A stretch of 64,000 bases of DNA from an uncultured Methanosarcinales archaeon (GCA_964354285.1 CAYGYR010000001.1:262424-326423), one strand, 5' to 3'. Shown: positions 1 through 39,588, numbered from the stretch's first letter. Numbers and translations are program-made. Notes: generated by a model from the sequence alone, not told the origin.

Positions 1-3000
1 TTGCTCATGAGTCCTGCCCAAATCAACAATGTTTTGCTTTATCCATTGCCTGTGGTCTGATGCAAATGCATCTTTTTCAGCGCGCCCCCATGCCATACTT
101 AGCCTTTCAATATATTTTTTCCTTGCCAAAAGATCTGGATACTGCTCATCATTCATATTCTTGTCAGAGGCAAGCCTTCTTACTTCTGGAATCTGATTGT
201 GATCAAAGTTAATGAAGTCAGTCATTCCTGGCCTAAGGCTGTAAAATTCAGGAACAAGCTGCGCTTCAAGGAAAGCAGGGTAGAGGCCATCATAGCCATT
301 GTTGCATAGGTCTGCAGGACTTTTTTTCATGATATTTGTATAATAATAATTAAGCGGGGCTATCCCTGATATCTCCAGGTCTGCTTTCATGCAATCCATA
401 TTTCTCTGGTCAAGGAACATGACAATCTCAGATGGAGCCCACTCCCGCTCAAGACCCAAAACTTCCCTTCTGTATTGGTCTGAGACAATATCTTTTGTAA
501 GCGAGTAATCTGCTCCACTAAAATCAAGATAGTTATACACTTTGATTGCGGCATAAAATTTCTTTAATTTTTCAACAGAGGCAGGATCAATTATCATTTG
601 CTCTCTGACATCAAGATAAGGAACAGCTTTGCCATCAATTGTTGTGCCTGCAAAATAAAGTGAATCAAGCAGGGCCCTATCAAAAGGGTTATAATGAATT
701 TGTAATGCTCCTGCATTCCATGCTTTCAATAATGCCTCATAACTATCAACCCTGCATCTTGGCAAGCCAAACCTTTGCATATACGCATCAGACCACTCAG
801 GAACTCTTCTCTCAATTCCTCCCCTATTGATGCATCCTGTTCCAGGATCACCAATATTATATCTCTGCAGCCTTCTGAAAAGCTCTTTTGCCCAGCCGCC
901 AGGGCTTGCATCAGTAACTTCCACATCAAATATCTGGATAATGCCTTCCTCTGCATCACGCAGCAAGTAATCAACCTCATCATCATAATCAAACAACAGG
1001 CTCATCTGCAGTAGCTGCCTGTCAGCATAGGCATACTTACTATAGATATCAAGCGCTTCCTTACAAGGAGCGTATGCAGTAACAGGAGAATTAAAAGGAA
1101 CTGCAACGCATTGGTCTTTGAGCATGTTTGCATTGTGGATTTCTGCAACAAACTCAGCCCTGAACCCTTGTTTCTCCTTAAGCTCATCAGCATACATCCT
1201 TGCTGCAAGAACTTCAGTTGCGAGATTAACAAGTTCGTCTGCGGCAAGGTGATGATATTTAATTAAATCAGGGGCGTCATTAACAATAGTCTGATGGAAT
1301 TGCACAGCCCTGTCACGAAGGAATCCACCAACGCTATATTTATCGTGGTAGAATTTCTCATCAGGCCTGCTCGAATCAGGTATTGTGGCATTGTGGTACT
1401 CATTTAATTCCAAATCTGTTATCAGCTCATTAAATGCATTCTCAAAATCTTTACAGGAAGTTAGGTCACGACCGCCTTCCAATGTACTAAAGCACGAAGC
1501 ACGTAAAGAAAGAACTTCTGCATACTTTTTCTTTGCAGGAGTGTATCTTGTTTTTGCAATCTCCCAATCTTCTGTCTGGTATTTTTTAAGGGCCTCCAAT
1601 AATTTTTCAGAATAGTAAAGAGGCCTGTCCTCATCAACAACATATTTGTAAAGTTCTTTTAAACCTGATCCTGCTCTTCCACAAGTCGCGCCACCCCGGG
1701 AAATGCAGGAAGCAACATCAAGCTCGATTTTTTCATACTGCTTTTCTGCACTTTCTGCTGACTTGTCTGCAACTGCAAGCCAATCAGCCTTGATGAGGGG
1801 ATCTGTGCTTCCGGCAAAAGCATAATTTTTGATTCCATATGCGGTTTCACCGCGGTGGAAATCAATAAAGAAAAGCCCATTTAAGTTATACAATGCATAA
1901 TATCTTGCTTTGACAGTAAGATAATCCGCAAAATTATTTCCTGCAGTAATTGTTTGAGGCTGTTCGCTCACAACTTTTGCCTCAATCTTGTCAGGAGTCC
2001 ATCCTGCATCTTTTACCAAGACATCATTCAAGCTTGCGAATCCGCTGTTCGTTAGCACAGTGTATGAGCTTCCTTTCTTTGCAAACAAATAATTTCCTGC
2101 AACAGCATACTCCCAGTCATATTTGCCGCCAACAAGATTTCCTGGAATCCATTTGTTTGCGCCTTGAGCCATCACTGCAGCTTGTATGGCATATCCTTGC
2201 TCCTGATCCCAAGGAACTGCAAAGAATCTTCCTGTATAGGAATCAATCTTGAACAAGTTGTTGTCGCCATCTCTTGCATAAAGAACATTTCCTATTCTTT
2301 TATACAGAAGCCCTGTCTTGCCTTTGCTTGGCTTCTGCCACACTAAGGAATTAACTTCGACAGCAAGCTCGTTTTGGAGCTTTTCCATCTCCTCGCTTAT
2401 ATTCAGGAATGTTATTGAGTTAGCTTTAACAGGCATTGTTCCTTCTGGGAAATTGTATAACTCAACAGAGCCAAGGTCTTCTGCCTGAACATAGCAGACA
2501 GCAGGATCATCTCCCTGAACAAGCAGGTCTGCTTTGCATGGGCTAGCAAGATAGAAGCGCAGCCCAGGCGGACTGTAATCTCTGCCTCTCAGCAGGCGAA
2601 GCAGGGGCGTGTTATTATACTTCAGAGGATATGGAGCAGGCCAGGCCGGACCAAATGATAGCCACATAGAATCTTTGCCACCATTCAAAGACCTCGCATT
2701 AATCCTGTCAATCATCTGCGCAAACAGGCCAGTGCCGAGCATCACGAGAAGCTTGTGGTCACGGGTAAGTTTTGCGCCAAAAACAGCACCTTTGCCAGTA
2801 TAGCCTGCGGCAGAAAGCAGTTTTCCAGCATACGGCACTTTTGTCCCCATCAGCCACACTTTTTCAGAATATGCTGTAAGCGCAGCAAGCGATAATTTTG
2901 AACTCTGACTAACTGTTGCATCAAGAGCTTGCAATTCCTTTTTTACAAGCATGTCATCAAATATTGTGTTAAATTCCTTGAACATTGCTTCCTGTGATTT

Positions 3001-4179
3001 TAAAGGAAGTGTGCCAAGGCTGTCAATCTGCTTTGACATTTGCGCAACAGCAGCATCGTCCATTGACCCAATTAATGTCTTGAAAGTTTCTTTCCTGCCA
3101 ACTAGCTCAACAAATTTAAGTTCAGACTTGCCAATAGGCGTAGCTACTTTCATTATGTTCTGCGCAAGCTCATCTGCACTTTTTGATATTGCCGTAATAT
3201 CTGCCCCCCGCATGCCTTTAGCAGTCGCAGTAAAGCCAAGCTCATCATAATTCTTGCCAAAATACTGCACAAGCTCGTCTTTAATTTGAGCTTGAGAAGC
3301 TTTGATAGAACCGTCCCTTTCGACGTGCTTGCTTAGGATTGCAGTCAAGTCATCTGCCTTGTAAGCATACCTTTCTGACACAGACCACAATTTTCCCAGC
3401 TCCCCTTTCAAGTAAGAATCAATTAATTTTATTTTTGCAGCCTTTTTTGCACCAAAACCAGAGTAAAGCCTAGCCATTTTTTTGAAAGGCCAGGCCATTG
3501 CCTTAAATGGAGCAAGCATCAATTTGAATGGCTCTTTCAATGCAGTTTTCATTGCATCCTTGCCCATGCCTTCAGTTATTGCTTTCTTAGTCGATCCACC
3601 AAGCCCTCCCGCAGGACCGAGAGCCGCGCTCACTATGCCAGAAACAGCAATTGCCACAACATCTGTGCTGAGCATATTGGCGCTCCAGTACTTATCCTCT
3701 CCATCTGGAAAGCTTTCGTAATAGAATAAGTATGCAGGATCTCCTATGCCTTGTATCCAATCCCTAACCATAGACGGCTGTATGTCTTGTGTAAGCTCAA
3801 AACCAATAACCTTGCATTTTGGTGCTTTCTTATTGATTAACTGCACAAGACTGCAGTCCACACAAACAGGACCATAGTGCACTCCCGGACAACTGGTTAG
3901 ATTAGTAGTATCACTATCTGAGCAATCTGTCTTGAAATCAATTTGCCCGTGGGCAACTGTGTTTGCTGCGCAAATAAATGCCCTTGCTGAATAATCAACA
4001 ATATCACCAACAGGCACACCAGGAACAAACTGCTCTGCAGAAGGAGGTGAAATCATTCCAAATATTCTTTCACCAACAATATGCCAAACTCCCTTTAATG
4101 GGGTGAGAAGCGTGGCTATTATGACTATGGCTGCAATGCCTCCTATGATTACACCCCATGCAACTGCTTTCTTGTTCAT
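1..4179 (-). CDS. Giant membrane-anchored protein of at least 1393 aa, partial because it runs off the window start. The ATG is at 4177-4179 and the N-terminal TM helix reads MNKKAVAWGVIIGGIAAIVIIATLL. It is not in the supplied ORF track because there is no in-window stop.
   Basis: I translated the minus strand by hand from 4179 down to position 1 and met no stop codon in about 1393 codons. All listed minus-strand short ORFs in this span lie in one other frame. The start ATG overlaps the TGA of the upstream small ORF in an ATGA pattern. The N-terminus is hydrophobic and the rest is large and soluble. Confidence 0.6.
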   Translation of the reverse strand, partial: MNKKAVAWGVIIGGIAAIVIIATLLTPLKGVWHIVGERIFGMISPPSAEQFVPGVPVGDIVDYSARAFICAANTVAHGQIDFKTDCSDSDTTNLTSCPGVHYGPVCVDCSLVQLINKKAPKCKVIGFELTQDIQPSMVRDWIQGIGDPAYLFYYESFPDGEDKYWSANMLSTDVVAIAVSGIVSAALGPAGGLGGSTKKAITEGMGKDAMKTALKEPFKLMLAPFKAMAWPFKKMARLYSGFGAKKAAKIKLIDSYLKGELGKLWSVSERYAYKADDLTAILSKHVERDGSIKASQAQIKDELVQYFGKNYDELGFTATAKGMRGADITAISKSADELAQNIMKVATPIGKSELKFVELVGRKETFKTLIGSMDDAAVAQMSKQIDSLGTLPLKSQEAMFKEFNTIFDDMLVKKELQALDATVSQSSKLSLAALTAYSEKVWLMGTKVPYAGKLLSAAGYTGKGAVFGAKLTRDHKLLVMLGTGLFAQMIDRINARSLNGGKDSMWLSFGPAWPAPYPLKYNNTPLLRLLRGRDYSPPGLRFYLASPCKADLLVQGDDPAVCYVQAEDLGSVELYNFPEGTMPVKANSITFLNISEEMEKLQNELAVEVNSLVWQKPSKGKTGLLYKRIGNVLYARDGDNNLFKIDSYTGRFFAVPWDQEQGYAIQAAVMAQGANKWIPGNLVGGKYDWEYAVAGNYLFAKKGSSYTVLTNSGFASLNDVLVKDAGWTPDKIEAKVVSEQPQTITAGNNFADYLTVKARYYALYNLNGLFFIDFHRGETAYGIKNYAFAGSTDPLIKADWLAVADKSAESAEKQYEKIELDVASCISRGGATCGRAGSGLKELYKYVVDEDRPLYYSEKLLEALKKYQTEDWEIAKTRYTPAKKKYAEVLSLRASCFSTLEGGRDLTSCKDFENAFNELITDLELNEYHNATIPDSSRPDEKFYHDKYSVGGFLRDRAVQFHQTIVNDAPDLIKYHHLAADELVNLATEVLAARMYADELKEKQGFRAEFVAEIHNANMLKDQCVAVPFNSPVTAYAPCKEALDIYSKYAYADRQLLQMSLLFDYDDEVDYLLRDAEEGIIQIFDVEVTDASPGGWAKELFRRLQRYNIGDPGTGCINRGGIERRVPEWSDAYMQRFGLPRCRVDSYEALLKAWNAGALQIHYNPFDRALLDSLYFAGTTIDGKAVPYLDVREQMIIDPASVEKLKKFYAAIKVYNYLDFSGADYSLTKDIVSDQYRREVLGLEREWAPSEIVMFLDQRNMDCMKADLEISGIAPLNYYYTNIMKKSPADLCNNGYDGLYPAFLEAQLVPEFYSLRPGMTDFINFDHNQIPEVRRLASDKNMNDEQYPDLLARKKYIERLSMAWGRAEKDAFASDHRQWIKQNIVDLGRTHEQ

Positions 4180-4319
4180 GGTCTTATCTGGCCGAGCAAG
4201 CCAATCATTCCGCCTTTTGACTTGATTGATATCACAATAATCAATGCAAGCACAAACAAGCCGATGATTAAGCCAACAATGTATCCCCAGATGGGGATAT
4301 CTGCTTTCTTATTTTTCAT
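4176..4319 (-). CDS. Small membrane protein of about 47 aa (MKNKKADIPIWGYIVGLIIGLFVLALIIVISIK...). It is translationally coupled to the genes on both sides.
   Basis: The internal Met start at 4317-4319 sits 1 nt after the TAA of the upstream gene (4321-4323). Its own stop overlaps the ATG of the giant ORF. It has a single hydrophobic helix. Confidence 0.35.
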   Translation of the reverse strand: MKNKKADIPIWGYIVGLIIGLFVLALIIVISIKSKGGMIGLLGQIRP

Positions 4320-4320
4320 T

Positions 4321-5304
4321 TTAGTCAAGCACATAATCGCAATTAGCTCCATTCTTGTTAAAAGGAAGTATGACACTATCATAAGGAACAACAACAATCT
4401 TGTCTGCCTTGTCCTGAGCATCAGCAGAACTGCCAAGGCCTAAAAAAGTGACGATTGGGCTTGTTACTGTTGCAATCTTATGCATGTTTATCCTTGAGTA
4501 AACAACAGCAATAGGCTGGTTCACATTATAGCCATAATTCTGCTGGAATGGCTTAAGCCAGTCAGGAAGTGTGTAAAGATAATAGCTCTCTGAAGTCCCG
4601 GGAACAGCATTAAACTGCATCCAAAGTGTTAAAGACTTTATGTCTGGTTTTGCTGCAAACTGTGATTTCACATCATCAGTAAGCTTCAACCTTGTGCAGA
4701 CAATGCAAAAAACAGGAGGCCTCTGGAATTTAAGATTCCATACTTTAAGATAGTCAAGGGATGTCATTGCTCCCGGTGTTACAGAAATGTTTTGCTGTGT
4801 TGCATTAGCGACTGTGGCTGGATCAAGAACAACATTTTGGTAATCAATCAATCTGTACCAGGAATCAAACAAAGGCATCTCTCCATGCCAGACCTTGTCC
4901 CAGCACTCGACCATTTCGTCAGCCACAATCTTGTTCATTGACCACTCTGCACGCATCAGCGGGTTAACCGGATCACTGAAAAGATTGCTTATTGCAGCAT
5001 AGTTCTGGCCTTTTGTCTTGTAGAACTGCATCATCTTTTCTGCAGAAGGATAGTTTGCCTGCAAATCAGCCATAGTCACGTTCTTGTATTTTGCCCTGCA
5101 CTCAACAGGAATATTCTCAAAGCCAAGTCCAGGAGTCCTTGTTAAAGCTGAAACAAGAACACTCCATTCACACTCTCCTTTTGAGCCAGCTGCATAGAGC
5201 TTTTCTCCGAACTCAGGAACAATGAAAAGAAAAACAACAAGAGCAATCACTGCTGCAATTGCGGCAACAGCAACAGATGTTATTTCATAGCCTTTCTTGT
5301 TCAT
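4321..5304 (-). CDS. Membrane-anchored exported protein of about 327 aa, function unknown.
   Basis: I trimmed the ORF-track entry 4321..5541 to the internal start MNKKGYEITSVAVAAIAAVIALVVFLFIV at 5302-5304. The longer N-terminus would overlap the pilin gene 5444..5713. It has an N-terminal TM helix followed by a soluble domain. Confidence 0.5.
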   Translation of the reverse strand: MNKKGYEITSVAVAAIAAVIALVVFLFIVPEFGEKLYAAGSKGECEWSVLVSALTRTPGLGFENIPVECRAKYKNVTMADLQANYPSAEKMMQFYKTKGQNYAAISNLFSDPVNPLMRAEWSMNKIVADEMVECWDKVWHGEMPLFDSWYRLIDYQNVVLDPATVANATQQNISVTPGAMTSLDYLKVWNLKFQRPPVFCIVCTRLKLTDDVKSQFAAKPDIKSLTLWMQFNAVPGTSESYYLYTLPDWLKPFQQNYGYNVNQPIAVVYSRINMHKIATVTSPIVTFLGLGSSADAQDKADKIVVVPYDSVILPFNKNGANCDYVLD

Positions 5305-5443
5305 ATCGCACCCTTGCTTTTCAGAACTGCAAGTATCATTATGAAAATTACCAAAATCAAGATTAGACTGATGATTAGCTCCCAGGCAATCCCTCTTTTT
5401 TGCATATATTAAAAAGTAAGAATAAGTATATATAAGATTTTCG

Positions 5444-5713
5444 TTATTTTTCACAGCAGACTTCATTAAAGCCAAGCGGCTCAAGCTGCCCTGTTGAATT
5501 TTTTTTGCCATAATCACCAAGCAAAGCCCTTTCGCAGTCATAGAATGACTTATTCTGGCCAGCAGGGCATTCTTTCAGTTCAGATGCTTCCTTGGTACCC
5601 TTGCCAAAATATCCTAGCTTGTTTATCACAGCATACAATAGAATGAAAAGAACAGCTAAGGCTAATGCTGCAATGACAATTGTTGTTATTGGCAAACCCT
5701 GAGCTTTTTTCAT
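5444..5713 (-). CDS. Type IV pilin-like protein with a class III signal peptide.
   Basis: The N-terminus MKKAQGLPITTIVIAALALAVLFILLYAVI is a charged stretch, then QG, then a long hydrophobic helix. The segment QGLPITTIVIAALAL is identical to the adjacent paralog. The protein is short, 89 aa. Confidence 0.55.
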   Translation of the reverse strand: MKKAQGLPITTIVIAALALAVLFILLYAVINKLGYFGKGTKEASELKECPAGQNKSFYDCERALLGDYGKKNSTGQLEPLGFNEVCCEK

Positions 5714-5765
5714 GTTATTAAGTTAAAAGCAAATAAAAGAAAAAATTAAAAGAAAAAAAAGTAAT

Positions 5766-6116
5766 TTAGTATGCTGTTGGAATACAGCAAGCAGCACAGG
5801 TAATCGGCTTGTTATCAGGGGCTAGTGTTCTTATTCCTCTTGCAATATACCCGCCTTGCACTTTTTGTTCATAAGTATTACATGCAGCAGTGGTTCTTGA
5901 AGCAGGATCACCCATCTTTTCTAAAATGCCGGGTTGCGCATTAATGCCTGTTGGGAAAGCATTAACGATACAAACTCCTCCGCATTCTGAAGCTGCTCCT
6001 GTAAAAATAGCTAATCTTCCTGTGGTTATTGCAAACAGAATAACAAGCACTACTAGTGCTAATGCTGCAATAACAATTGTTGTTATCGGCAAACCTTGAC
6101 CTTTATCCATAATCAT
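5766..6116 (-). CDS. Type IV pilin-like protein with a class III signal peptide, paralogous to 5444..5713.
   Basis: MIMDKGQGLPITTIVIAALALVVLVILF has a KGQ motif followed by a hydrophobic helix, typical of archaeal prepilins. Its globular part is Cys- and Gly-rich. Confidence 0.55.
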   Translation of the reverse strand: MIMDKGQGLPITTIVIAALALVVLVILFAITTGRLAIFTGAASECGGVCIVNAFPTGINAQPGILEKMGDPASRTTAACNTYEQKVQGGYIARGIRTLAPDNKPITCAACCIPTAY

Positions 6117-6317
6117 ACACCTCTATTAGTTTATGAGGATACTTTAAGCCAATTAGTATATAAACTTTTTGATGATTTAGTAAGCGACAAAATAACTCAT
6201 AATATAAATCGCTTACTAAAGCTTGCAGGACATAACTAGTTTATGATTTATTTATGTCCTGCATTGATTGAGACGAGAGATTAAAAAGTACGAGAACGTA
6301 CAGTACCCTTTCTTGAG

Positions 6318-6412
6318 GCCCTTCGGGCATTTACAACTGTATATGCGGACTGTTTTTCCATACAATACAACTGCGAGCAAAGCAGAGCTTTGCGAGCCTA
6401 GATGCCCGAAGG
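6318..6412. repeat. 12-bp perfect inverted repeat, cccttcgggcat ... atgcccgaaggg, flanking about 70 nt. This may be a structured element.
   Basis: I read it directly in the intergenic region between the pilin gene and lrp. Confidence 0.4.
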
Positions 6413-6441
6413 GCAATTAGCTTTTAACAAAAATAAAAAAT

Positions 6442-6915
6442 TCATGCTGCCGGGAACAGCATGTCAACCATGTCAGGCCTGACAAGAAAGTCTTCCTGCT
6501 TGAGGTCTTCGACTATGTAATGGATGTCTTTCACTTTCACATCAAACTTGTCATCAAGACTCTCAACAAAATCCTCGAGCTCGCAGGCATTCCTGAAAAT
6601 AAAGTCAGCCATGAAATCATAGCCGTTGTTTATCTTGTACAGGGAATTCACATTGGCAGACTGCATAAGAAACTCCCGCATATGCTCTTTTGTCTCCTTC
6701 CTTGCCTTGATAAGCACAGTTGCCCGAGTATTGTAGCCAAGCTTCGGATAGTTCAGCAGGGCAGTTGCCCGCAGAATCACCTCGCCCGCGCCAGACCTAA
6801 TCCTGTCAAATATCGTGCTAACAGGCACGCCTGACTTTCTTGACAGGGTTGTCAAGGGTATCCTCGCATCCTGCCTCAAGTAAGAGGCAAGCATCAAATC
6901 TTTTTTCTTAATCAT
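6442..6915 (-). CDS. lrp: Lrp/AsnC-family transcriptional regulator.
   Basis: It has an N-terminal HTH (DARIPLTTLSRKSGVPVSTIFDRIR) and a C-terminal RAM-like domain. The length of about 157 aa fits. I chose the start at the internal Met MIKKKD. Confidence 0.7.
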   Translation of the reverse strand: MIKKKDLMLASYLRQDARIPLTTLSRKSGVPVSTIFDRIRSGAGEVILRATALLNYPKLGYNTRATVLIKARKETKEHMREFLMQSANVNSLYKINNGYDFMADFIFRNACELEDFVESLDDKFDVKVKDIHYIVEDLKQEDFLVRPDMVDMLFPAA

Positions 6916-7050: not shown

Positions 7051-7944
7051 ATGAAAAGAAAAGTAATACAGCTGGCGCACAAAACATTTGTTGTGAGCCT
7101 GCCCAGCAAGTGGGTAAAAAAACTTGGAATAAAAAAAGGGGATGAGCTTGAGGTTGATGACTCTGGAAAATCACTAAGCATAGCAACGCAAAGCAAAAGC
7201 AAGAGCACAGTCAGCATCCACCTAAATGGCCCTGAAGAGCTGATGCGAAGAAGGATAAACACAGCATACAAGCGTGGCTTTGACGAGCTCGAGCTAACTT
7301 ATGACGACCCAAAGGCAATAAAGGCAATACAGAAAGAGCTTGACCTGCTTCTAGGATATGAAATAGTAAAACACGGTGAGAAGCACTGCATAATCAAGTG
7401 CATAGCAAACACTTTAGAAGAAGAATATGACGTAATACTAAGAAGAATATTCCTCATGCTCCTGGAAATGGGAGAGGAAAGCCTCAAAGCAATAAAAAAC
7501 AAGGAATTTGACAGGCTGAATGAAATTGCCCTGCTAGAGCACACAAACGACAAGCTGACAAACTTCTGCAAAAGAGTGCTTAACAAAAACTGCAGCCAGA
7601 ACTCAATAATGCAATACTGCATAGTAAGAGAGCTTGAGCGCATTGCAGACTCTTATGCAAAAATCTGTACAAATATGCAGGAAAGCAAATTAAAAGCAAG
7701 CAGGGAAACAATTCTTTTCTATGAAAAAACAAATAATCTTGTGAGAGAGTTTTACGACTTATTTTATGATTTCAAAGAAGACAGGGCAGAAATATTCTCA
7801 AGGCACAGGGAAGAAATAAAAAAGCAAGGCAGCATCCTTACAAATGCAAAACCAAAAGAAGAGGCACTGCTCATACAAACAATATCAGGAATCGCATCGC
7901 AAGTAAACGCGGCAGCAGGGCCATTCTATGCAACGAAGCTATAA
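7051..7944 (+). CDS. Regulator with an AbrB/SpoVT-like swapped-hairpin N-terminus and a PhoU-like domain.
   Basis: The N-terminal KVIQLAHKTFVVSLPSKWVKKLGIKKGDELEV is AbrB/MazE-like. The C-terminal helical region resembles PhoU-family phosphate-uptake regulators. Confidence 0.55.
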   Translation: MKRKVIQLAHKTFVVSLPSKWVKKLGIKKGDELEVDDSGKSLSIATQSKSKSTVSIHLNGPEELMRRRINTAYKRGFDELELTYDDPKAIKAIQKELDLLLGYEIVKHGEKHCIIKCIANTLEEEYDVILRRIFLMLLEMGEESLKAIKNKEFDRLNEIALLEHTNDKLTNFCKRVLNKNCSQNSIMQYCIVRELERIADSYAKICTNMQESKLKASRETILFYEKTNNLVREFYDLFYDFKEDRAEIFSRHREEIKKQGSILTNAKPKEEALLIQTISGIASQVNAAAGPFYATKL

Positions 7945-9944
7945 TCCTTGAGCTGATCCAAAGCAGCATTCAGCTCAGAATAATTTTTTACTTCTCCCAA
8001 AGAAATATCTCCCCGAGAACAGAGTGTTTCAATATCTGTTGATGCATTCTTAATTGTATCAAGTGCAGCAGGCATCTCCCTCTGCCTTCTTGTCTTTGCA
8101 AAAAGCCAGTAAGCAAGCGCCCTGAGCGGGGTGCGCTTCCTGAACTCAATCAAGAAAGCAGTATCATTTATCCTGCGGCTGCTGCCAACAGCATTGTTGA
8201 AAGTTGGAAGATAATCAGAGCAGATAACATCATCTATTGCCTTGTCACCGTCTGAATCCCTGGAAAACAAAAATCCCCTTCTGAGCAGCTTGTTAAGGTC
8301 AGACTCAGGAGAGGTCGCTCCCCTGTAAGGAGTATCATACCTGACAAGAGAGCCACCATCTTCGCAATGAAACTGGCCTGTGTGAGCATCTGAATCAAAA
8401 ACAAGGCCAAAAGAATCAAAACCTGCAATAATTGCAGGAAGAGAATCACAGATAGACTGCTTCAGCTCTGGAGGAATATCTATCACTGCGAGGCTTGACT
8501 TGATATCCTCATAAATATTCTTTGTATCACCTTTGTGAGGAACCAAGGCATGAATAAGCGCAGTGCATTTTGCAGCTTCTTTAAGCAGTTTTACATCACC
8601 TGAATCAAGATAAGCTTCAGTCAATCTTTTTCCTGCAGCAGCAAACTCTGTGAGATAATAATTTTCATAAAGAGGCTGGATGCCAGGAGCATATATTGCC
8701 TTGTGGCCAATCCTCCTCAGGGCCTTGCCAATAATGCCCAGGAGATTTTTCTCTTCCAAAAGAGGCTCATACTGCTTTCCTTCCTTTAGTATGACCAGGT
8801 CTTTTGTGAACTTGTCAAGAACAATCCTGAAAACCCTGTAGCCATCAATTGACTCAAAATAATCCTGAACATTAGGCAACTCAATAAGATTTTTAATTGC
8901 TGAATTACATTCTTTATCTGTCTTTAATTCAAGCAAGTTCTCAAGAGATTCATTGCCGAACTCTTTGCTGAGATGCTCCTGCAGCTTACTGCCTGCTGAA
9001 CGCGGCAAATCTATCTCTTTAACAATATCTGAGATCACATGCAGGGTTTCAGCATACCCAAAACACATTGAAACGCTTTTATCATATTTCAGAAGCTCTT
9101 CAAAAGCTTGCAGGCCGTGCACAAAATCAAATTTGCTGAGAGCATAAAATGAATCAATCGGGCCAAGCCTGGGAAATATTTTCAAAACTGCCTTAATAAC
9201 AGGATAATGATAATATCTCTCATACAAGTTTTTTTCTTTTAATTCAGCCAGGAGACCTTTTAATGCCTTTGAATTGCAGATGAGGGCATTTTCTTTTTCT
9301 CCATACTTCAAGTAGACTGAAGCTTTTTCACCGTATATCCTATGCGGTCTTTTCAAATACAAATTCATTTTATCCAGATTGCTTATCTCTGACACTAAAC
9401 CAAAACATTTTGCTTGCTTTTGGCTGTAATGAAAATATTTAAAATAATTAAATAACTCTGGCGGCTTAAATCTATTAAGCCCTTGCAAAAACAACGCAGG
9501 AAATGCACCGCTCACTGCGGTCAGCATAAAATAAGTGCTGCGTATTTTATCAATTGCACCAAGGTTCAACATCTCAAAGCTCTTGTCTGAAGCTGCACAA
9601 AGCAGGGCTGTGTTTGCCATGCAGAAAAGCGATGCTGCAGCAGGATTATTGATTGCGGCTTCAAGAAAACTGCCCTCTTTTTTCAGCTTGTATTTCTTAA
9701 AAAGATATAATGCGCCAAGCGCAGAGAGAGGAACGCCACACAGCATCGACAGAAAAAAAGGAAAAAATATTTGCTTGCTTTTTTTGCGATTCAAATATTG
9801 CTCAGGAGATTCTAGAGCTATTTGCTTAGAAGTTTCTGCTTTCGGCTTCAGATAACCCACATAGCCAGTGTATGCCAGAGAGCTTCCTGCAATCAAAGCT
9901 CCTGCAATACAGCCTAATACTTTCTTTTTCCATCCCCCAACCAT
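7926..9944 (-). CDS. 672-aa membrane protein with two N-terminal TM helices and a large soluble domain. A kinase-like fold is possible.
   Basis: The N-terminus is hydrophobic. The motif LVPHKGDTKNIY...AVIDIPPE at aa 469-495 loosely resembles the HxDxxxxN plus IDxxE catalytic motifs of the APH/choline-kinase-like family. Confidence 0.4.
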   Translation of the reverse strand: MVGGWKKKVLGCIAGALIAGSSLAYTGYVGYLKPKAETSKQIALESPEQYLNRKKSKQIFFPFFLSMLCGVPLSALGALYLFKKYKLKKEGSFLEAAINNPAAASLFCMANTALLCAASDKSFEMLNLGAIDKIRSTYFMLTAVSGAFPALFLQGLNRFKPPELFNYFKYFHYSQKQAKCFGLVSEISNLDKMNLYLKRPHRIYGEKASVYLKYGEKENALICNSKALKGLLAELKEKNLYERYYHYPVIKAVLKIFPRLGPIDSFYALSKFDFVHGLQAFEELLKYDKSVSMCFGYAETLHVISDIVKEIDLPRSAGSKLQEHLSKEFGNESLENLLELKTDKECNSAIKNLIELPNVQDYFESIDGYRVFRIVLDKFTKDLVILKEGKQYEPLLEEKNLLGIIGKALRRIGHKAIYAPGIQPLYENYYLTEFAAAGKRLTEAYLDSGDVKLLKEAAKCTALIHALVPHKGDTKNIYEDIKSSLAVIDIPPELKQSICDSLPAIIAGFDSFGLVFDSDAHTGQFHCEDGGSLVRYDTPYRGATSPESDLNKLLRRGFLFSRDSDGDKAIDDVICSDYLPTFNNAVGSSRRINDTAFLIEFRKRTPLRALAYWLFAKTRRQREMPAALDTIKNASTDIETLCSRGDISLGEVKNYSELNAALDQLKDYSFVA

Positions 9945-9976: not shown

Positions 9977-10468
9977 TTAGCCACAAATCTCAAGAGTCAG
10001 CTTTATCTCAAATCCAGGCCTTACAGGAACAGGATGGGTCTTTGCCTCTTTCTCGCCAGGGCAAGGGGAACCGAATTTTATCTGCTCAACATCATAAGCT
10101 CCCGCTATTGAGAAATAATAATCCTTGTTCCACCTGATAATGGTCCTGTCAAGCAGTATCTCAATCTGCGAGCTCACGTAATCACAGGAATTAATCCCGC
10201 TGCAGTCAGTCGCGCCGCTTGTCAGGGCACAGTCCTGCAACAAGTCCCGAACAGTCCTGCCATAGCAGTCTGTTGTTGTGCTGAGCATTGTGTTAAGGAA
10301 GTTAGCTGCAACAATGCTCTCCTTGACAGCAGCCTCTGGCTTGCCGGTTGGGGCTTTCAGCAAGAACTGGACTGCAAAAAGCATTCCAATAGCTATAAGA
10401 ATGATTATGACAACAAGGCCCATGATTTCCATCTGGGACTTATTCTTCTGCATAAACCTCAACCTCAA
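9977..10468 (-). CDS. Small exported protein with a pilin-like N-terminal hydrophobic segment, possibly a minor pilin or pseudopilin.
   Basis: ...KNKSQMEIMGLVVIIILIAIGMLFAV has a motif (E-x-MG then hydrophobic) paralogous to 10440..10934. It is the first of an operon-like array that all lies on the minus strand. Confidence 0.45.
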   Translation of the reverse strand: MRLRFMQKNKSQMEIMGLVVIIILIAIGMLFAVQFLLKAPTGKPEAAVKESIVAANFLNTMLSTTTDCYGRTVRDLLQDCALTSGATDCSGINSCDYVSSQIEILLDRTIIRWNKDYYFSIAGAYDVEQIKFGSPCPGEKEAKTHPVPVRPGFEIKLTLEICG

Positions 10469-10934
10469 TTATGCCAAAATCATACCTATTGCCAATCACA
10501 TCATAGAGAAGTATTGGGCTCTGCGTTGAAATCTTTGAACTGTACTTATCAGGAATGTTCCTGTAAAGCACAAGCGGATTTTCTTCTTGGGGATAGAGCT
10601 GAGTTATTATTACATTTGAAAACCCAAACAGGTTATAGTAATCAACAAGATAATCTTCCTGAGGGCTCAAGCCAAGGTGCGAGCTAAGGATTGAAAGCTT
10701 CTGCTTGTCAAAGCAATTGTCTTTCTGCACGCTTGCGAATGAGCAATCAAGCTCTGGCATGTGCAGTGCCTTCTGGACAACCTGTATTGCCCTCAGCTGG
10801 ACCTGCTTCTCAAGCTCTGTTTGCAAGGAACTTTTCTGGATCTGGAAATAAAACGATGCAGCTGCAACAAGGAGAAAGAAAAATACAACCAAGACACCCA
10901 TTGTCTCAAACATCTTTATCTGCGCCTTTCTCAT
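10440..10934 (-). CDS. Small exported protein with a pilin-like N-terminus.
   Basis: MRKAQIKMFETMGVLVVFFFLLVAAASFYF has a positively charged leader and a hydrophobic helix. It overlaps its neighbours. Confidence 0.45.
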   Translation of the reverse strand: MRKAQIKMFETMGVLVVFFFLLVAAASFYFQIQKSSLQTELEKQVQLRAIQVVQKALHMPELDCSFASVQKDNCFDKQKLSILSSHLGLSPQEDYLVDYYNLFGFSNVIITQLYPQEENPLVLYRNIPDKYSSKISTQSPILLYDVIGNRYDFGIIEVEVYAEE

Positions 10935-10935
10935 A

Positions 10936-11997
10936 TCAATAAATCTCCGGGCATGAGAGATAGATTATGTTCCTGTTCTCCCGCTCAAGAGCTTCTTTTT
11001 TTGCAACAAGCGCGTTTGCATCCTGTATTTTTTCATAAACCTGCGGAGCTTCTGAAATGATTTTTGCAGATTCTTTTATTGCCTCAAGGTCATCAAGCAG
11101 GTAGATGCATTCTGTCCTGTTCTGCTGCTGCATTGTCTCCTGCAGCTTCTGCGCCCTTTCATAAACAACCTGGGCAACGTGAGCAGTGCGCGCAAAAGCT
11201 GCCCTCATTCCGCACTCATACAGGATCTTATCAGAAGCAAACATTGCTGCGAATATAGAAGGCTCCCCGATAAATATTGAAAGGCTTTTTACAAACATGA
11301 GCTCGTTTTCTTCTTTCTCAAAAAAAGAGACTAGCTTTGCAGATGATTCTATTGATACTGCAGAAACTTTTTCTTTCCTGAAAGAATCATCAAGGCCCTC
11401 AAGAGCAGGCTCTGCATCACTTGAAACATCAAGGAAAACAAACTTTGTCTCCTGAAAGCCTTCTGAGCGCGCATCTTTTATCTTGCCAAGGCCATCAATT
11501 GAGGCAATGTTAAGGCCAGGAGGCAGCTCAGTGCTTATCTGCCTGTAAAGCTTTGCTGAATCCTGGATTGAGGAATCATAAACAAGATAATACTTTATGT
11601 TCGGATTGGTAAGATAAAGAAAATTAGTCACCCTGAAAGGCATCTTGAATTCCTGAGCCCAGGCAATCGCGTCCTGCCCTGAAATCAGGCTCGGCGCGAA
11701 TATAATTTTGTCACGGAACTCTGTTGCCTTTTTACCAATCAGGAAATTGCATTCACAAGCTTGAGAGCAGCTAAATGCAATGCTGGTCCTTGGCACTGGG
11801 AGGGGCTGGGCAGTGCCTTTGCTCTCAATAGCTCCAGAAAAGACTGCTTCCATGTCTGTTGCGAGGGTTATGGAAAGCTTATCCTCAGATAGAGTTCTCT
11901 GCTTTTGAACAAGAGAAAAAAAGAACGCAAGTATTATCGCTCCTGCTATCAAAATAAAGACCCAGTGAAACTGCATCTCAAAAGCTTTTTTATTCAT
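10936..11997 (-). CDS. N-terminally TM-anchored extracytoplasmic protein of 353 aa, function unknown.
   Basis: It has a single N-terminal TM (FHWVFILIAGAIILAFFFSLV). It overlaps the upstream gene by 4 nt. Confidence 0.45.
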   Translation of the reverse strand: MNKKAFEMQFHWVFILIAGAIILAFFFSLVQKQRTLSEDKLSITLATDMEAVFSGAIESKGTAQPLPVPRTSIAFSCSQACECNFLIGKKATEFRDKIIFAPSLISGQDAIAWAQEFKMPFRVTNFLYLTNPNIKYYLVYDSSIQDSAKLYRQISTELPPGLNIASIDGLGKIKDARSEGFQETKFVFLDVSSDAEPALEGLDDSFRKEKVSAVSIESSAKLVSFFEKEENELMFVKSLSIFIGEPSIFAAMFASDKILYECGMRAAFARTAHVAQVVYERAQKLQETMQQQNRTECIYLLDDLEAIKESAKIISEAPQVYEKIQDANALVAKKEALERENRNIIYLSCPEIY

Positions 11998-12491
11998 GTT
12001 TGCTCTTCAGCAGGCCATTCAGAAATCTTTGCTTTCTTGCCAAGGCCCTCAAGCTTCAGGACAATCTTGCCATAGCTTGCGCCAACACAGACATAACCGC
12101 CATCAACAGCTATGTCCTCAAGATAAATCGGGGCCTCCTGCTTGGGAACAAGGAAAACATTCTCGCTGCCAGCCTGCCAGGCAGAATACATCAAGGGCCT
12201 TGCCTGCTCAAGATCGCCTGGCTGATTTGCCTTGTCAGGATCCACAATACAAACCTCTGTGTACCTGTTCGGCAGCCTTAACTCTATTTTTTTCACACTG
12301 CCATAATCCCTTTTGATTACCTCAACAGCTGACTCAAAATCTGTCTTAAAGTCAATCAGGGCAACCTGCTCTGAGCGCTGGAGAAAATTTGAGATTGCAC
12401 GATAGCCATATATTAGTATAAGAAGAAATATGAGCGCGGCTAGAACAAAAATAAAAATCTGGCCAATCATCTGCGCTTTTGCTTTTCTCAT
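11994..12491 (-). CDS. Small exported protein with a pilin-like N-terminus.
   Basis: The N-terminus reads MRKAKAQMIGQIFIFVLAALIFLLILIYGY. It sits 1 nt downstream of the giant adhesin gene. Confidence 0.45.
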   Translation of the reverse strand: MRKAKAQMIGQIFIFVLAALIFLLILIYGYRAISNFLQRSEQVALIDFKTDFESAVEVIKRDYGSVKKIELRLPNRYTEVCIVDPDKANQPGDLEQARPLMYSAWQAGSENVFLVPKQEAPIYLEDIAVDGGYVCVGASYGKIVLKLEGLGKKAKISEWPAEEQT

Positions 12492-12492
12492 C

Positions 12493-15400
12493 TTATTTTC
12501 CTTTCTTTAATTTTTTAAGCCTTGATAGGGCATCTTCTGATGGATTTGCCTTTACATCCCTGAGCTTTGAGATAGCCTCTTCCTTTGGCACTCTATCGAC
12601 AAGTTTTGGCTTTTTCTTAAGCTCCCTTAGCTTTTCAAGAGAATCGCCTGGCTTCTCTATTCTTTTCTTGATTTCTTCAAGAGAAATGAACTCTTCTGGA
12701 GCCTCTTTTTTCCTGACAAGCTTTCTTAGAGGATTTATCTTCTCCATAGGCATGGGCTTTGGAGCAGCTGGCCTTGGCTTTATCTCTGGCTGGATTTCCT
12801 CTGGGGGGGCTTTCTGAAGCTTTTTCTTTATCTCTTCAATCCATTTCTCAAAATATCCTTTAGTGTAGCCATAATACGCGCCATAGCCTGCACCACCAAT
12901 CAGAGCAAGGATAAAAATTATTTTCAGGAAAGTCAAGAACATGGATGACGGATGGCTTGTTTTATCAAGAGGATTTGTGCCTGCATCAATCTCCTGCTTG
13001 TCTGACCAGCCGTCTTTATCACTATCCCTTTCTTTTGGATTTGTTCCTGCACGGTATTCTTCAATATTATTCAAGCCATCTTTGTCTGGGTCTGCATCAG
13101 GAGCGCCATCACCATCACAAAGCACGCTTCCAAAATGATTAATTCTCCAGGCATCATCAATCTCATCATCACAACTGAACAGGTCTGCCATGTTAAAGCC
13201 TTCTGCAGTCGGATCACGGCAGGTCTTGCCAGCGCATCGCAATTCAGACAGGCAGTCATCCGCCAGATTGCAATTCTGCCCGCTTGCACACCTATCTGGG
13301 CACGCGCCGCCGCAATCAATATCTGACTCAGAGCCGTCAAGCACCCCATTCTCGCAGGGGCCTGGAATTATGCACTGACCATACTTGCATTTGCTTGAAC
13401 CACAATCAGTATCAACTGCACAGGTCTTGTTAAGCTCGCATTTCGCGCAGCCCGAGCCACCGCAATCAACATCTGTCTCTTTTCCATTCCTGAAGCCATC
13501 ATCACAAGCAGCTGCTGCACAGGTTCCATTTGTGCAGAACATTGAGTCGCAATCAGTATTTTCCTTGCAGAGCTTGCCTGCTGCGCATCCTGCGCAGCTT
13601 CCTCCGCAGTCAATATCTGTCTCATTAAGGTCAGCCTCCCCATTAACACAGCCAGGGGGAGCTTTTGTTGCATCAACAGTTACCCCATCGCTGGCAACTG
13701 GCTCTCCCTCAAGGCCTGCAATATTGACTGGCTTGACCCTGAAAATATACCTTGTGCCGTCTGTGAGATTTGCCTGAACATAAATCGGGCTACCATTAAG
13801 CTCGAGGCTAGGGGTCCAGTTGACAAGAACATCGCGAGTGAAAGCAGCCTCAAGCATGTAATAATAGCTCACAACCCTTGACTCATTATCCCCTCCGAGG
13901 AATCTCAGTCTTAGCTTGTTTGAATACCAGGAGATATCTGGCTGGCCCGGAAGTGTTGAGCTGTCATCAACCAAAACCATGAACGGCGGCGTATTATCAA
14001 CAGCAACTGTGATTGCAGTTACATTGCTCACTGCACCGCCAGCACCTGTGTTGCATTTCACATAGAAAGTATGAGTCCCTGCTGGCTTTGAAACCTGCTG
14101 GACATGGCTCGTGCCAAATGAGCAGTTGCCAAAACAGTTAGTGATTGCCTGCGCGTCTTCACCGAAATAGCAGAATGATTTCTTGTTTGCCTCAATGCTC
14201 AGGAAGAAAATGCCATCACTTGAATACGGCGGAGTTATGCTTGTAATCTTGAAAGACTGCGTAAGGTCAACATAAAACTTAATCATAACGGTCGGTGAAG
14301 CCAATCCTGAAAGGCTCTTGCATGCGGCATAGAAAGTCTGATTGGTTGTCTGCGTGACATTGACATCAGTAGAGTGTGATTTTTTTGGGTCCTCATCAAA
14401 GCCAGGGAAGAATCCTTCCATTTCTGCAAAATTCTGCTTTGACTGGCTGTACTTGCAGAACCCTTCCTTGTTTGCCTGGACTTGCAGCCTCGTCATATAA
14501 ACAGATGTGTTTGGAGCAATGGGCTCAACTATGGGGTTTGGCTGGGCATATGATGAAACAATTAATGGAGGTATGGTATCAACATGAATGTCAAAGCTCT
14601 CTTTTGTTGTCCCAAACTTTTCTGTCTTGCAGTAAACATGCATCTTGTGCACAGAGCCATCACCAAAGGGAATCTTGTTAAAGCCAGCAAGCTTGTGCTC
14701 AATCCCGCCTGTTGAATCAAAGTTAGCAAAAGTATCAAACTGGTCTTCTGGCGGAGGTGTTGGAACATCATAGATATACTTGCAGCTTGCAGCAGAAGAT
14801 GTCTCAACAATCACATCAAATGTGTAGCCAGGCGCAATTCCCCAGCTCGGAGCCTTAAGCCTCATCTGCGGAGCAGCTGTGATTACAGAAAAAGATGACT
14901 TAACAAGAACCTGGTTAGATGCATAATCCGTTGCCTTGACATTAACAACCTTTAACCCTTCCCTCAAGTTAGAGACAGTGCCTGCAAAAGACCTGTTATC
15001 AGTGGTCTTGAGCCTTGCAGGAAGGTCCAGAGGGAATGCTTTCTTGGCAAGCTTGTCAACAAAAATTATTTCATCAAGGCTTGTGCTTCCTAAAAGAACT
15101 GGCTCGCTAAAATTAAGCGCGACTGCAACACTTGCTGTGGTGAATTCTGACGCATCTGGCGGAGAAATCACAACAGTAGGAGGTGTGGTGTCAACCTCAA
15201 GCACAAATGAAAGAGGATCCTCCATCTGAACAGTATTATTATCAACAGAGTTAAGCGAGAAAACATATTTTCCTTCTGACAATGGGGAGTTTGGCCTGAA
15301 GGTGTATTGATAATTTGCGCCAGATGCAGGGGATGAGGCAATCTGCACGCCAAGAGACTCTTTTGCAAGGCTGGAGGCAGTAAGCTGCGCAGGCTTGTTA

Positions 15401-17364: not shown

Positions 17365-18671
17365 GCAATTGGGATAAACCTTACAGTCTGATAATCTTTC
17401 AGCTCGCCATCGTCTGCAGTCACTTTTATTTTCAAGCCACCTGTTGCAGAGTCTGTGTTATAAGAAGCAACTGCCCATGTTGCCCAGTAATCAACATCAA
17501 TCTCGTCAGCGCTTGGATTAATTGCGTAAGTCACGTTATCATTATCTGGATCAGAGACATTGAACTTTAAAGGAAAGATTTGAGCAACAGGAATGGATTC
17601 ACGGGCTGCGGCAGAGACGACCTTTAGCGGGGCAAATGTAAGCTGACTTCCGCCAAAACGAACCACGTTTCCAATGCAGTACATGTACAGGTCTATCTTT
17701 GTCTGATTAACCCATTGCAGCGCAGGCGCCCTATTTTTTCGCGCAATCCTGAATTCATATGGCTTGCCCTTGAGCTTTGCTTTTGCATCCTGATATATGA
17801 TCACATCATCTTTTCCAAAAACATCTTTATTGATTGCAATAAAATAATCGCTTGTTGCCTGCGGCTCATAACTGATGTTTGTAATGTCGCTGTCAATGAT
17901 TTCTTTCACTGCATAATAGATTTGGCCAAACCTGATTGGATAGCTAACAACAAACTGGTTAAGTGTTGTCTGCGCCTGTGTTGCATATTCCTTGACTGTG
18001 ACAGACCAGTTGAGGACAAATGAGATGTATTCCTCAGCCTCGAGCTGCGTTGTGTTTTCTGCAATAATCATCTGGACAGATGGCTTTCCTGCATCAATGT
18101 TAAGCCCCTGCATTTCAAAAGTGCCCCAGTTAGCGCATTTAAGAACATTTGTTACAATGCTTTTTTCAAGCTGGTCTTGTATGGAGAGCGTCCCGCTAAT
18201 TTCCCTGTAAAGCGGGGGAAGCTTTGAAACACCAAAATACCCATAATCCTGCTTTCCTCCTGCAACATAAGGGAACATCTGCCAGGGGTATTCAGGAGGC
18301 TCTGAGAAAAAAATGCTTCCCACATTTCCTGTTGGGGGAACAATGTCATAAATAAGTTTCAGGCCATCATAATCAAGATGCACTTTGCCTTTAAAAACAG
18401 GCATGGGTTCTTGTATCATCCCGCCCTGGCTCTCATAAAGCACGCCCCCTTGCTTTCCAATAAGCTCCATTGACTGAGCGGCAGCAACATCAAGGCAGCT
18501 TGTTATGTAATCCTTGACTGGCTGGACAACAGTTGGTCTCAAGCTTTGCATCATGCCCTCTTCGCTTTTTTTCCCTGCTTTGGAAGAAAAGAGATAAATC
18601 ATCATGCCTATGCCTATCAAAAGTATTATTCCGATGATTATGAATATGGTTATTTGCGCTTTTCTTTTCAT
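17349..18671 (-). CDS. TM-anchored extracellular protein with a C-terminal cadherin-like Ca-binding domain.
   Basis: The N-terminus MKRKAQITIFIIIGIILLIGIGMMIYLF starts at an ATG that overlaps the upstream TGA in an ATGA pattern. A C-terminal motif reads ...NVSDPDNDNVTYAINP. Confidence 0.55.
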   Translation of the reverse strand: MKRKAQITIFIIIGIILLIGIGMMIYLFSSKAGKKSEEGMMQSLRPTVVQPVKDYITSCLDVAAAQSMELIGKQGGVLYESQGGMIQEPMPVFKGKVHLDYDGLKLIYDIVPPTGNVGSIFFSEPPEYPWQMFPYVAGGKQDYGYFGVSKLPPLYREISGTLSIQDQLEKSIVTNVLKCANWGTFEMQGLNIDAGKPSVQMIIAENTTQLEAEEYISFVLNWSVTVKEYATQAQTTLNQFVVSYPIRFGQIYYAVKEIIDSDITNISYEPQATSDYFIAINKDVFGKDDVIIYQDAKAKLKGKPYEFRIARKNRAPALQWVNQTKIDLYMYCIGNVVRFGGSQLTFAPLKVVSAAARESIPVAQIFPLKFNVSDPDNDNVTYAINPSADEIDVDYWATWAVASYNTDSATGGLKIKVTADDGELKDYQTVRFIPIACKEQ

Positions 18672-19777: not shown

Positions 19778-19799
19778 TTCACCTCTTTTTTTAATTTAA

Positions 19800-36122: not shown

Positions 36123-36130
36123 TTCTTAAA

Positions 36131-37651: not shown

Positions 37652-37652
37652 C

Positions 37653-38582: not shown

Positions 38583-38620
38583 TAAATAACAAAAAAATAT
38601 TTAAAAACGAGAACCAAAGC

Positions 38621-39571: not shown

Positions 39572-39588
39572 ACTGAGGTGAATATAAA

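Follow-up and report, generated by a model that had tools for sequence, protein, structure and literature searches.

A conserved gene cluster with class III-like N-termini in Woesearchaeota: candidate subunits of a type IV pilus-like surface structure

The minus strand of positions 1–6116 in a 64-kb stretch of archaeal DNA (GCA_964354285.1, CAYGYR010000001.1:262424–326423; the whole stretch is called the window below) carries a cluster of six genes, encoding two pilin-like proteins, a 34-amino-acid (aa) peptide, a 327-aa pilin-like protein, a 47-aa peptide and a giant protein whose gene runs off the end of the window. This cluster is real and conserved in Woesearchaeota, and none of its protein families has a characterised member. 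Each of the six products opens with a pattern like that of a class III signal peptide, and on balance the genes probably encode the subunits and accessory components of a type IV pilus-like surface structure in this DPANN lineage, with the assembly machinery encoded elsewhere. Archaeal markers in the window comprise PolD, Cdc6, RFC, aRF1, RNase P p30, the tRNA-splicing endonuclease and both PheRS subunits, and all named relatives of the locus proteins come from metagenome-assembled genomes of Candidatus Woesearchaeota or Nanoarchaeia. The comparisons below refer to related loci in public assemblies (L001–L020), with surrounding DNA taken up to 10 kb on each side where the contig permitted, and to database proteins designated by P-numbers. 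A profile scan of genomes with a 12-sequence alignment returned six loci among species representatives.

A class III signal consists of a hydrophilic leader that ends in Gly or Ala, followed by ~21 hydrophobic residues (PMC8179133). All six products of the locus have a short basic leader ending in [KR][GA] and then 23–28 uncharged residues, and an ad hoc class III rule picked out every one of them. Applied to the ATG-started open reading frames (ORFs) of at least 30 aa in the window, which end at 331 distinct stop codons, the rule marked 14 ORFs: the six of this locus, five at 9977–18701, a single ORF at 34956 and two likely false positives. Class III-like ORFs are thus concentrated in this and the adjoining locus, and in relatives another set follows the giant gene. 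An earlier note, written from this DNA alone, had described class III or type IV pilin-like N-termini on the two pilin-like proteins; the pattern fits those two and reaches beyond them to the 34-aa, 327-aa, 47-aa and giant products.

Family-wide conservation of the predicted processing site (marked ↓), a stronger criterion than the rule, is strictest in the pilin family, where position −1 is Gly or Ala and position +1 is Gln in 34 of 34 members. The ~35 N-terminal residues of this family are nearly invariant, and beyond about residue 45 the sequence becomes hypervariable with conserved cysteines. In the family of the 327-aa protein, Gly or Ala directly follows the last Lys or Arg in 47 of 59 scorable members (80%), most of the other 12 have Gly one residue later, and one member (P0223) carries KKA↓FTLIEM, a textbook prepilin site. 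Gln is also the commonest +1 residue in that family; among the window's own proteins it occupies +1 in both pilins (KG↓Q or KA↓Q) and is absent from that position in the 34-aa, 327-aa, 47-aa and giant proteins. When the two family profiles are aligned, their KKGQ-plus-hydrophobic segments fall into register (hhalign 93%, E 2.4e-7), a match that is biased by composition and is taken as supporting only. Among the window's class III-like proteins, the two pilins are the only pair detectably related to each other. In Methanococcus maripaludis, EppA cleaves its substrates at KG↓Q or RA↓Q and needs Gln at +1 (PMC4371748).

Both pilins contain exactly the segment QGLPITTIVIAALAL, as the earlier note had reported for genes 5766..6116 and 5444..5713. 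Pilin 1 can be read from 6116, giving 116 aa with two extra codons, or from the ATG at 6110 (5766..6110), giving 114 aa with the predicted cleavage MDKG↓QGLPITT...; the ATG at 6110 is the likelier start because it lies 7 nucleotides (nt) after a conserved AGAGGTG (6118–6124) and agrees both with homologues and with the NCBI-derived protein P0006. Pilin 2 (5444..5713; 89 aa; predicted cleavage MKKA↓QGLPITT...) has a C-terminal domain unlike that of pilin 1, and the identical protein is present on six public contigs, each of at most 6 kb. The two are paralogous over their N-terminal ~45 aa only, with 60% identity by BLASTP and 82% nucleotide identity over 77 nt. The pilin 1 family comprises ~60–85 unnamed proteins, found in Woesearchaeota and Nanoarchaeia only.

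Predicted structures of pilin 1 and the 327-aa protein share an architecture consistent with a pilin-like role, in which an N-terminal helix precedes a β or α/β head. The AlphaFold model of pilin 1 (predicted local distance difference test (pLDDT) score 81.5) has a helix at residues 9–36 followed by six β-strands. That of the 327-aa protein (pLDDT 85.4; predicted template modelling score 0.82) has helices at residues 7–28 and 30–54 followed by an α/β head, and the family to which it belongs (213 cluster representatives) has six conserved cysteines in the head. Conserved cysteines of this kind indicate extracellular domains. Sequence searches of the PDB gave chance-level matches only; one of them, an archaellin N-terminus matched by the 327-aa profile (E 1.7), was kept as a lead and nothing more.

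The remaining genes are tightly packed. The 34-aa gene (5301..5405; MQKRGIAWELIISLILILVIFIMILAVLKSKGAI) encodes a class III-like peptide, MQKRG↓IAWELIISLILILVIFIMILAVLKSKGAI, that has no head domain, and it overlaps the next gene in an ATGA. It is kept at the same place in L001, L007, L008, L010/L015, L011, L013 and L014, persists in relatives whose other proteins are only 30–50% identical, and has an annotated counterpart in the public L010 and L011 records (a 35-aa or 40-aa gene). The 327-aa gene follows (4321..5304; MNKKG↓YEITSVAV...), encoding a long N-terminal helix and a cysteine-containing α/β ectodomain. As the earlier note had pointed out, the ORF listed at 4321..5541 over-extends into pilin 2: the start MNKKG... 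is conserved, and L007 has a stop codon just upstream of it. A single nucleotide separates the TAA of the 327-aa gene from the gene for the 47-aa class III-like peptide (4176..4319; MKNKKA↓DIPIWGYIVGLIIGLFVLALIIVISIKSKGG...), which in turn runs into the giant gene through another stop–start ATGA; the peptide is 100% identical in L001 and L008 and has diverged homologues at the same place in L007, L010, L014 and L016. Translational coupling (ATGA, TAA-N-ATG and ATGA in turn) is confined to these last four genes. The continuous coupled chain proposed earlier therefore stands for the 327-aa, 47-aa and giant genes, with the overlooked 34-aa gene added at its head, and does not extend to the pilins, which are set apart from their neighbours by spacers of 52 and 38 nt.

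The giant ORF (1..4179; class III-like MNKKA↓VAWGVIIGG...) reads through 1393 codons in a single frame, from 4179 to the window edge, without meeting a stop, as the earlier note had claimed; its explanation for the absence of this ORF from the supplied list was also correct, since the ORF tool skips frames that run off an end. The complete protein, which that note had proposed to obtain by extending the contig, was recovered from the protein database: the window's ORF corresponds at 100% identity to residues 1–1393 of a 1535-aa NCBI protein (P0001) from a 585-kb contig, leaving 142 residues outside the window. Look-ups by exact protein sequence with the 327-aa protein, pilin 1 in its 116-aa version and P0001 gave no result. 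A 6-Cys N-terminal domain occupies residues 70–122, and motifs are conserved around GFEL and GDPxYLxYYESFPxGED. A helical region rich in Lys and free of Cys spans ~190–545; beyond ~545 come close Cys pairs (548/562, 825/833, 896/909 and more) and a conserved C-terminal ...AWPN. Relatives are rare, only ~8 among 5.8 billion proteins; a search with an N-terminal profile brought in just two further fragments. Pfam, NCBIfam and PDB sequence searches with the giant protein gave no match.

Comparison with close relatives divides this protein into two parts. Against L008, nucleotide identity (blastn) is 86–92% over the upstream 6.6 kb, except for the strain-specific segment 6180–6423, and homology ends abruptly near 4015, that is, at about codon 55 of the giant gene. 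Protein identity to the L008 counterparts falls from 100% (47-aa peptide) through 98% (pilin 2), 94% (the adjacent Lrp-type regulator), 88.5% (327-aa protein) and 80% (pilin 1) to ~28% for the full-length giant protein. Nucleotide homology to L009 continues to about codon 193 and is patchy beyond. Across sister strains, giant proteins are 28–54% identical and pilin 1 ~80%, in strains where pilin 2 is 98–100% identical and the neighbouring genes are at 88–100%. This pattern suggests that the giant protein combines a conserved N-terminal "handle" (codons 1–55, 4015..4179) with a replaceable ectodomain, and variability of this kind is what would be expected of exposed surface or adhesion proteins.

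Gene order is conserved well beyond these close strains. An Lrp-type gene, two pilins, an ORF of 34–40 aa, a protein of ~325 aa, a peptide of ~50 aa and a giant protein (1083–1704 aa) recur in that order in L007–L010 and L013–L016, with a variant in L011; the order is kept in loci whose pilin is 43–78% identical to that of the window, and in relatives an opposite-strand gene of 186–215 aa comes after the giant gene. An extra hydrophobic ORF of 50–53 aa, which the window does not have, follows the first pilin in L010 (10327–10479) and L011 (10297–10458). The gene at the head of the series (6442..6915, minus strand; 157 aa from the ATG at 6915, a start set from homologues opening MIKKKDL) encodes an Lrp/AsnC-family transcription regulator recognized by weak matches to HTH_AsnC and AsnC_trans_reg in Pfam and to Lrp in NCBIfam. 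Wherever the sequence of a relative reaches this position (L001, L007, L008, L010, L011, L013–L016), the gene lies directly upstream of pilin 1 and points the same way, and we regard its product as a candidate regulator of the cluster.

In relatives the cluster always adjoins homologues of the window's neighbouring locus, and in more distant Nanoarchaeia a pilin gene stands beside homologues of that locus's minor-pilin-like genes and a large adhesin-like protein. Because of this joint conservation of gene order, and the direct adjacency in distant Nanoarchaeia, the two loci are probably parts of one system. The neighbouring locus (9977–22526, minus strand) encodes class III-like proteins of 163, 164, 353, 165 and 440–450 aa, several with Gln at +1. 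Also encoded there are large proteins of 1623 aa, with immunoglobulin (Ig)-like and TSP3 repeats, and of 908 aa, with a Laminin_G_3 (ConA-like) domain, and a secreted protein of 369 aa. Between the two loci lie genes for a 297-aa AbrB/MazE-plus-PhoU-domain protein (7051–7944, plus strand, divergent from the Lrp gene) and for a 672-aa membrane protein without a family match (7926–9944, minus strand); their positions are kept in relatives, and they are possible regulators or accessory proteins. On the other side, in L013–L016, an opposite-strand gene of 203–210 aa follows the giant gene, and further on come class III-like genes of ~100, 170, 365, 170, 130 and 280 aa and, beyond them, an RPA-like gene. 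A corresponding set would fall beyond window position 1, and because the class III-like run continues past the giant gene in these relatives, the whole pilin-like region measures ~30–35 kb, with roughly 17–20 such genes. Elsewhere in the window lies a third cluster (34956–40530, plus strand), also without Pfam matches. One of its products, of 388 aa, has a class III-like N-terminus with KRG↓Q; another, of 506 aa, is a polytopic membrane protein; and three (309, 316 and 313 aa) are paralogues that resemble lipoproteins, with lipobox-like Cys residues. Scans for tRNA genes and Rfam families were empty across the 64-kb window.

Putative transcription signals were read by eye and then checked through their conservation. 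Upstream of pilin 1, a box resembling a transcription factor B recognition element (BRE) and TATA box (AAAAAGTTTATATACT, 6155..6170, minus strand) includes the conserved part AAAAAGTTTATATA at 6157–6170, and the same motif recurs at the same distance from the ATG in L001, L007, L008, L010, L011, L014 and L016; the AGAGGTG already mentioned, between box and ATG, resembles a Shine-Dalgarno sequence. Directly 3′ of the pilin 1 stop is a T-rich tract (5721..5760), with T8 at 5753–5760 and then further T runs. It resembles the oligo-T terminators of archaea, and a weak pilin 2 promoter may overlap it. A second BRE/TATA-like box (AAATCTTATATATA, 5426..5440), ~26 nt ahead of the start codon of the 34-aa gene, is conserved as CTTATATATA and kept in L008, L010, L013 and L014, as well as in L001, whose row in the alignment is offset. 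Its distance from the ATG suggests a leaderless or short-leader transcript opening the four-gene chain. The conserved boxes suggest three transcription units rather than one: a monocistronic and probably abundant pilin 1 transcript would be separate from one running from the 34-aa gene to the giant gene. A single polycistronic transcript from 6116 to 1, as envisaged in the earlier note, is unlikely in view of the boxes before pilin 1 and the 34-aa gene and the T8 after pilin 1. A scan for bacterial sigma-70 promoters, irrelevant for an archaeon, performed no better than on shuffled sequence. Because it has its own promoter-like box, Shine-Dalgarno-like sequence and terminator-like T run, pilin 1 is the candidate major subunit.

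Between the Lrp stop and the pilin 1 box, the minus-strand sense of 6171–6441 holds a strongly structured intergenic insert of ~250 nt, with three long hairpins (arms of 16, 15 and 12 nt) and a minimum RNA folding free energy of −85.9 kcal/mol (z −7.7 against shuffles). The 88%-identical relatives L001, L003 and L005 lack it, and L008 has other sequence there; the insert has no Rfam match, and a 35-nt hairpin-arm probe occurs once in the window. It could be an insertion resembling a miniature inverted-repeat transposable element or a strain-specific non-coding RNA.

Under the interpretation that we favour, all six products would enter the membrane by way of their N-terminal class III signals, and a prepilin peptidase of the A24 family would cut after the Gly or Ala behind the basic leader; the +1 Gln of both pilins would point to an EppA-like enzyme. 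Polymerisation of the hydrophobic α1 helices thus freed would fall to an ATPase of the PilB/ArlI type and a platform protein of the TadC/ArlJ type, with pilin 1 as the major subunit and pilin 2 as an alternative or minor one. The 34-aa, 327-aa, 47-aa and giant genes would constitute a module of their own, co-translated and supplying minor or accessory subunits. Within it, the role of the giant protein would be that of a modular pilin or an adhesin, whose ~55-residue handle serves membrane insertion or assembly and whose strain-replaced ectodomain probably makes contact with a surface or host. In this picture, gene structures, motifs and their conservation, gene order and strain variability are observed, whereas cleavage of the signals, assembly into a filament, the activity of the promoters and the part played as an adhesin are inferred.

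Several results weigh against this interpretation. We speak of pilins because of signal, predicted architecture and genomic context, and not because of homology to known pilins. The QxSxExxxL motif characterizes the Class_IIIsignal (DUF361) family of Pfam. It is absent here, as the mature pilin begins QGLPITTIV, without Ser at +3 or Glu at +5; the +5 Glu is a stated feature of the Epd pilins (PMC4371748). None of the Pfam and NCBIfam models for pilins, archaellins and Flp proteins (Pilin_N, Class_IIIsignal, Arch_flagellin, Flp) came at or near its cut-off with any of the six proteins; across the 34 pilin-family members there was one weak match to Flp1_like (E 0.0024) and one to Pilin_N (E 0.089), and neither these proteins nor the giant homologues had a meaningful match in Pfam or NCBIfam. 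Fold searches with the pilin 1 and 327-aa models found nothing significant among solved structures. The rule by which we recognized class III-like N-termini was our own and differs from the published FlaFind. Finally, the scanned ORFs of the 64-kb window include no ATPase of the T2SSE type, no platform protein of the T2SSF type and no A24 peptidase, and none of these appears among the gene calls and precomputed Pfam hits on record around L007–L011, L018 and L020; neither a PilB/ArlI-type ATPase nor a TadC/ArlJ-type platform was found in or near the locus, and no assembly genes lie next to the more distant pilin homologues.

It is because no ATPase, platform or peptidase gene turned up in the window or in the fetched DNA of related loci that we only infer an appendage locus here. 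The earlier note's reading of the region as an appendage locus with pilin signals accordingly held in part: the signal pattern was borne out, in six proteins, and pilin profiles, solved folds and machinery gave it no support. Archaeal pilin genes can lie away from pilB and pilC, as pilA1-6 do in Haloferax, and DPANN archaea are reported to carry type 4 filament system 1, with many pilins and its own peptidase, as well as system 4A (bioRxiv 10.64898/2026.04.22.720090).

Alternatively, the products could be bitopic (type II) membrane proteins, held by uncleaved signal anchors in a lineage-specific envelope complex that anchors an S-layer, for instance, or makes contact with cells, with no pilus machinery involved. 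No pilin profile or fold was matched by the six proteins or the models, no assembly genes accompany them in the window or in the DNA fetched around related loci, and the 34-aa and 47-aa peptides amount to little more than one transmembrane helix each. A plain anchor, however, requires neither an invariant small residue nor a +1 Gln, and both are present throughout the pilin family; the 327-aa family retains Gly or Ala behind the last basic residue in most of its members, and near-invariant N-terminal residues joined to a variable head form the pattern of an assembly interface. We consider this alternative unlikely. It seems quite unlikely, too, that prepilin peptidase processing here serves a short pseudopilus, or a bindosome-like display of large proteins, in place of a long adhesive pilus. 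Class III signals in Sulfolobus are also found on bindosome and sugar-binding proteins, in surface assemblies that are not pili (PMC4371748, PMC4858521), and the locus and its neighbours encode unusually many different class III-like proteins with large ectodomains. Sequence does not separate such a structure from the pilus-like one that we favour; the signals around pilin 1 are those of an abundant major subunit expressed on its own.

Two further alternatives concern the giant protein. It might be a polytopic scaffold with transmembrane segments at residues 10–28, 169–187 and ~477–495 and a Lys-rich cytoplasmic domain of ~285 aa, in which case it would hold or organise the structure instead of being carried on it. 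Residues 169–187, with a Kyte-Doolittle mean of 1.87, exceed the usual cut-off of 1.6 and keep their hydrophobicity in homologues, and were this segment to span the membrane, it would keep the giant protein from being drawn out into a filament, a further point against our preferred reading. The stretch ~123–547 is without cysteine and net positive just past 187, and both of its flanks hold cysteines that could pair. Against a scaffold, the hydrophobicity of residues 477–495 is weak (Kyte-Doolittle 1.16) and lower still in L010, and a Hessa-type sum supports membrane insertion of the N-terminal segment only and not of 169–187; we therefore regard the polytopic arrangement as doubtful. The other alternative, that the long frame is an artefact (a chimera or pseudogene) or that the cluster is part of some mobile element or provirus, is so improbable that we reject it; nothing was found in its favour. 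The 1393 stop-free codons are identical in frame to an independently predicted 1535-aa protein, full-length homologues of 1174–1704 aa occupy the same position in other assemblies, and L002 and L004, from other sequencing runs, are 99.97–100% identical over 3.8–5.2 kb; the sequencing errors or frameshifts that could, according to the earlier note, have undone the frame did not materialise. G+C content (0.41–0.44 over 1–6000) stays within the range of the window itself, the flanking genes are of housekeeping type, and the gene order is conserved across the lineage.

Woesearchaeota and other DPANN archaea are thought to live attached to other cells. To our knowledge, the contact molecules of DPANN archaea are largely unknown, and no pilus of this lineage has been characterised. 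The locus supplies candidates from the lineage: a probable major pilin family confined to it, a 213-cluster family of 300–350-aa pilin-like proteins with a confidently modelled head unmatched in solved structures, two headless mini-subunits and a giant surface protein whose ectodomain differs by exchange between strains that are otherwise nearly identical. If the pilin interpretation is true, the catalogue of archaeal type 4 filament subunits gains families that current profiles miss, along with a strain-level determinant of specificity that could be traced in metagenomes. A bolder proposal, to which we give a rather low probability, is that the 34-aa, 327-aa, 47-aa and giant genes form a Woesearchaeota-specific host-contact device that swaps ectodomain cassettes of 1100–1650 residues on the ~55-residue handle, through which they would be fitted to a filament or an envelope complex; in its radical variant, the giant protein would cross the membrane repeatedly, place a Lys-rich domain in the cytoplasm and serve as a new kind of trans-envelope scaffold independent of the canonical type IV machinery. 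Were such a device to exist, cassette replacement would set which host cell or surface the symbiont attaches to.

Among characterised systems, the Epd pili (system 1) of M. maripaludis share with the cluster a short basic leader, K-G↓Q or K/R-A↓Q sites and Gln at +1, as well as many pilin-like genes, very small and near-headless subunits and large adhesin-like partners. The proteins described here differ in belonging to no profile, in lacking QxSxExxxL and the +5 Glu, and in having heads without detectable similarity, and the Epd genes cluster with an ATPase, two platform genes and a dedicated peptidase, none of which is near this locus. The PilA1-6 proteins of Haloferax volcanii are likewise paralogous pilins with a near-identical hydrophobic N-terminus and different heads, and their genes, besides being separate from pilB/pilC, are not co-regulated with them; they belong to the Pilin_N/DUF1628 family, which is unmatched here, and are processed by PibD at R/D-A↓V-S. 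Archaeal type IV pilus loci may also include PilY1/DUF2341-type adhesins, large secreted proteins beside ~5 minor pilins (Makarova et al. 2016). With its 908-aa Laminin_G_3 (ConA-like) protein and 1623-aa Ig-like/TSP3 protein, the neighbouring locus resembles this arrangement, whereas the giant ORF has no LamG, DUF2341 or β-propeller match.

For the giant protein itself, a close parallel is with the modular pilins, such as PilB and PilC of Streptococcus sanguinis, CofB and GspK, in which a small N-terminal pilin-type handle bears a bulky functional module, presumed to be located at the filament tip (PMC8179133). The giant protein differs from them in being archaeal, in showing no recognisable pilin-module fold or known adhesion domain, in its possible second hydrophobic segment and in its length of 1535 aa, compared with 860 aa for the largest in the bacterial survey (PMC8179133). 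It resembles them in its putative handle, here ~55 conserved residues, joined to a module that is exchanged between strains.

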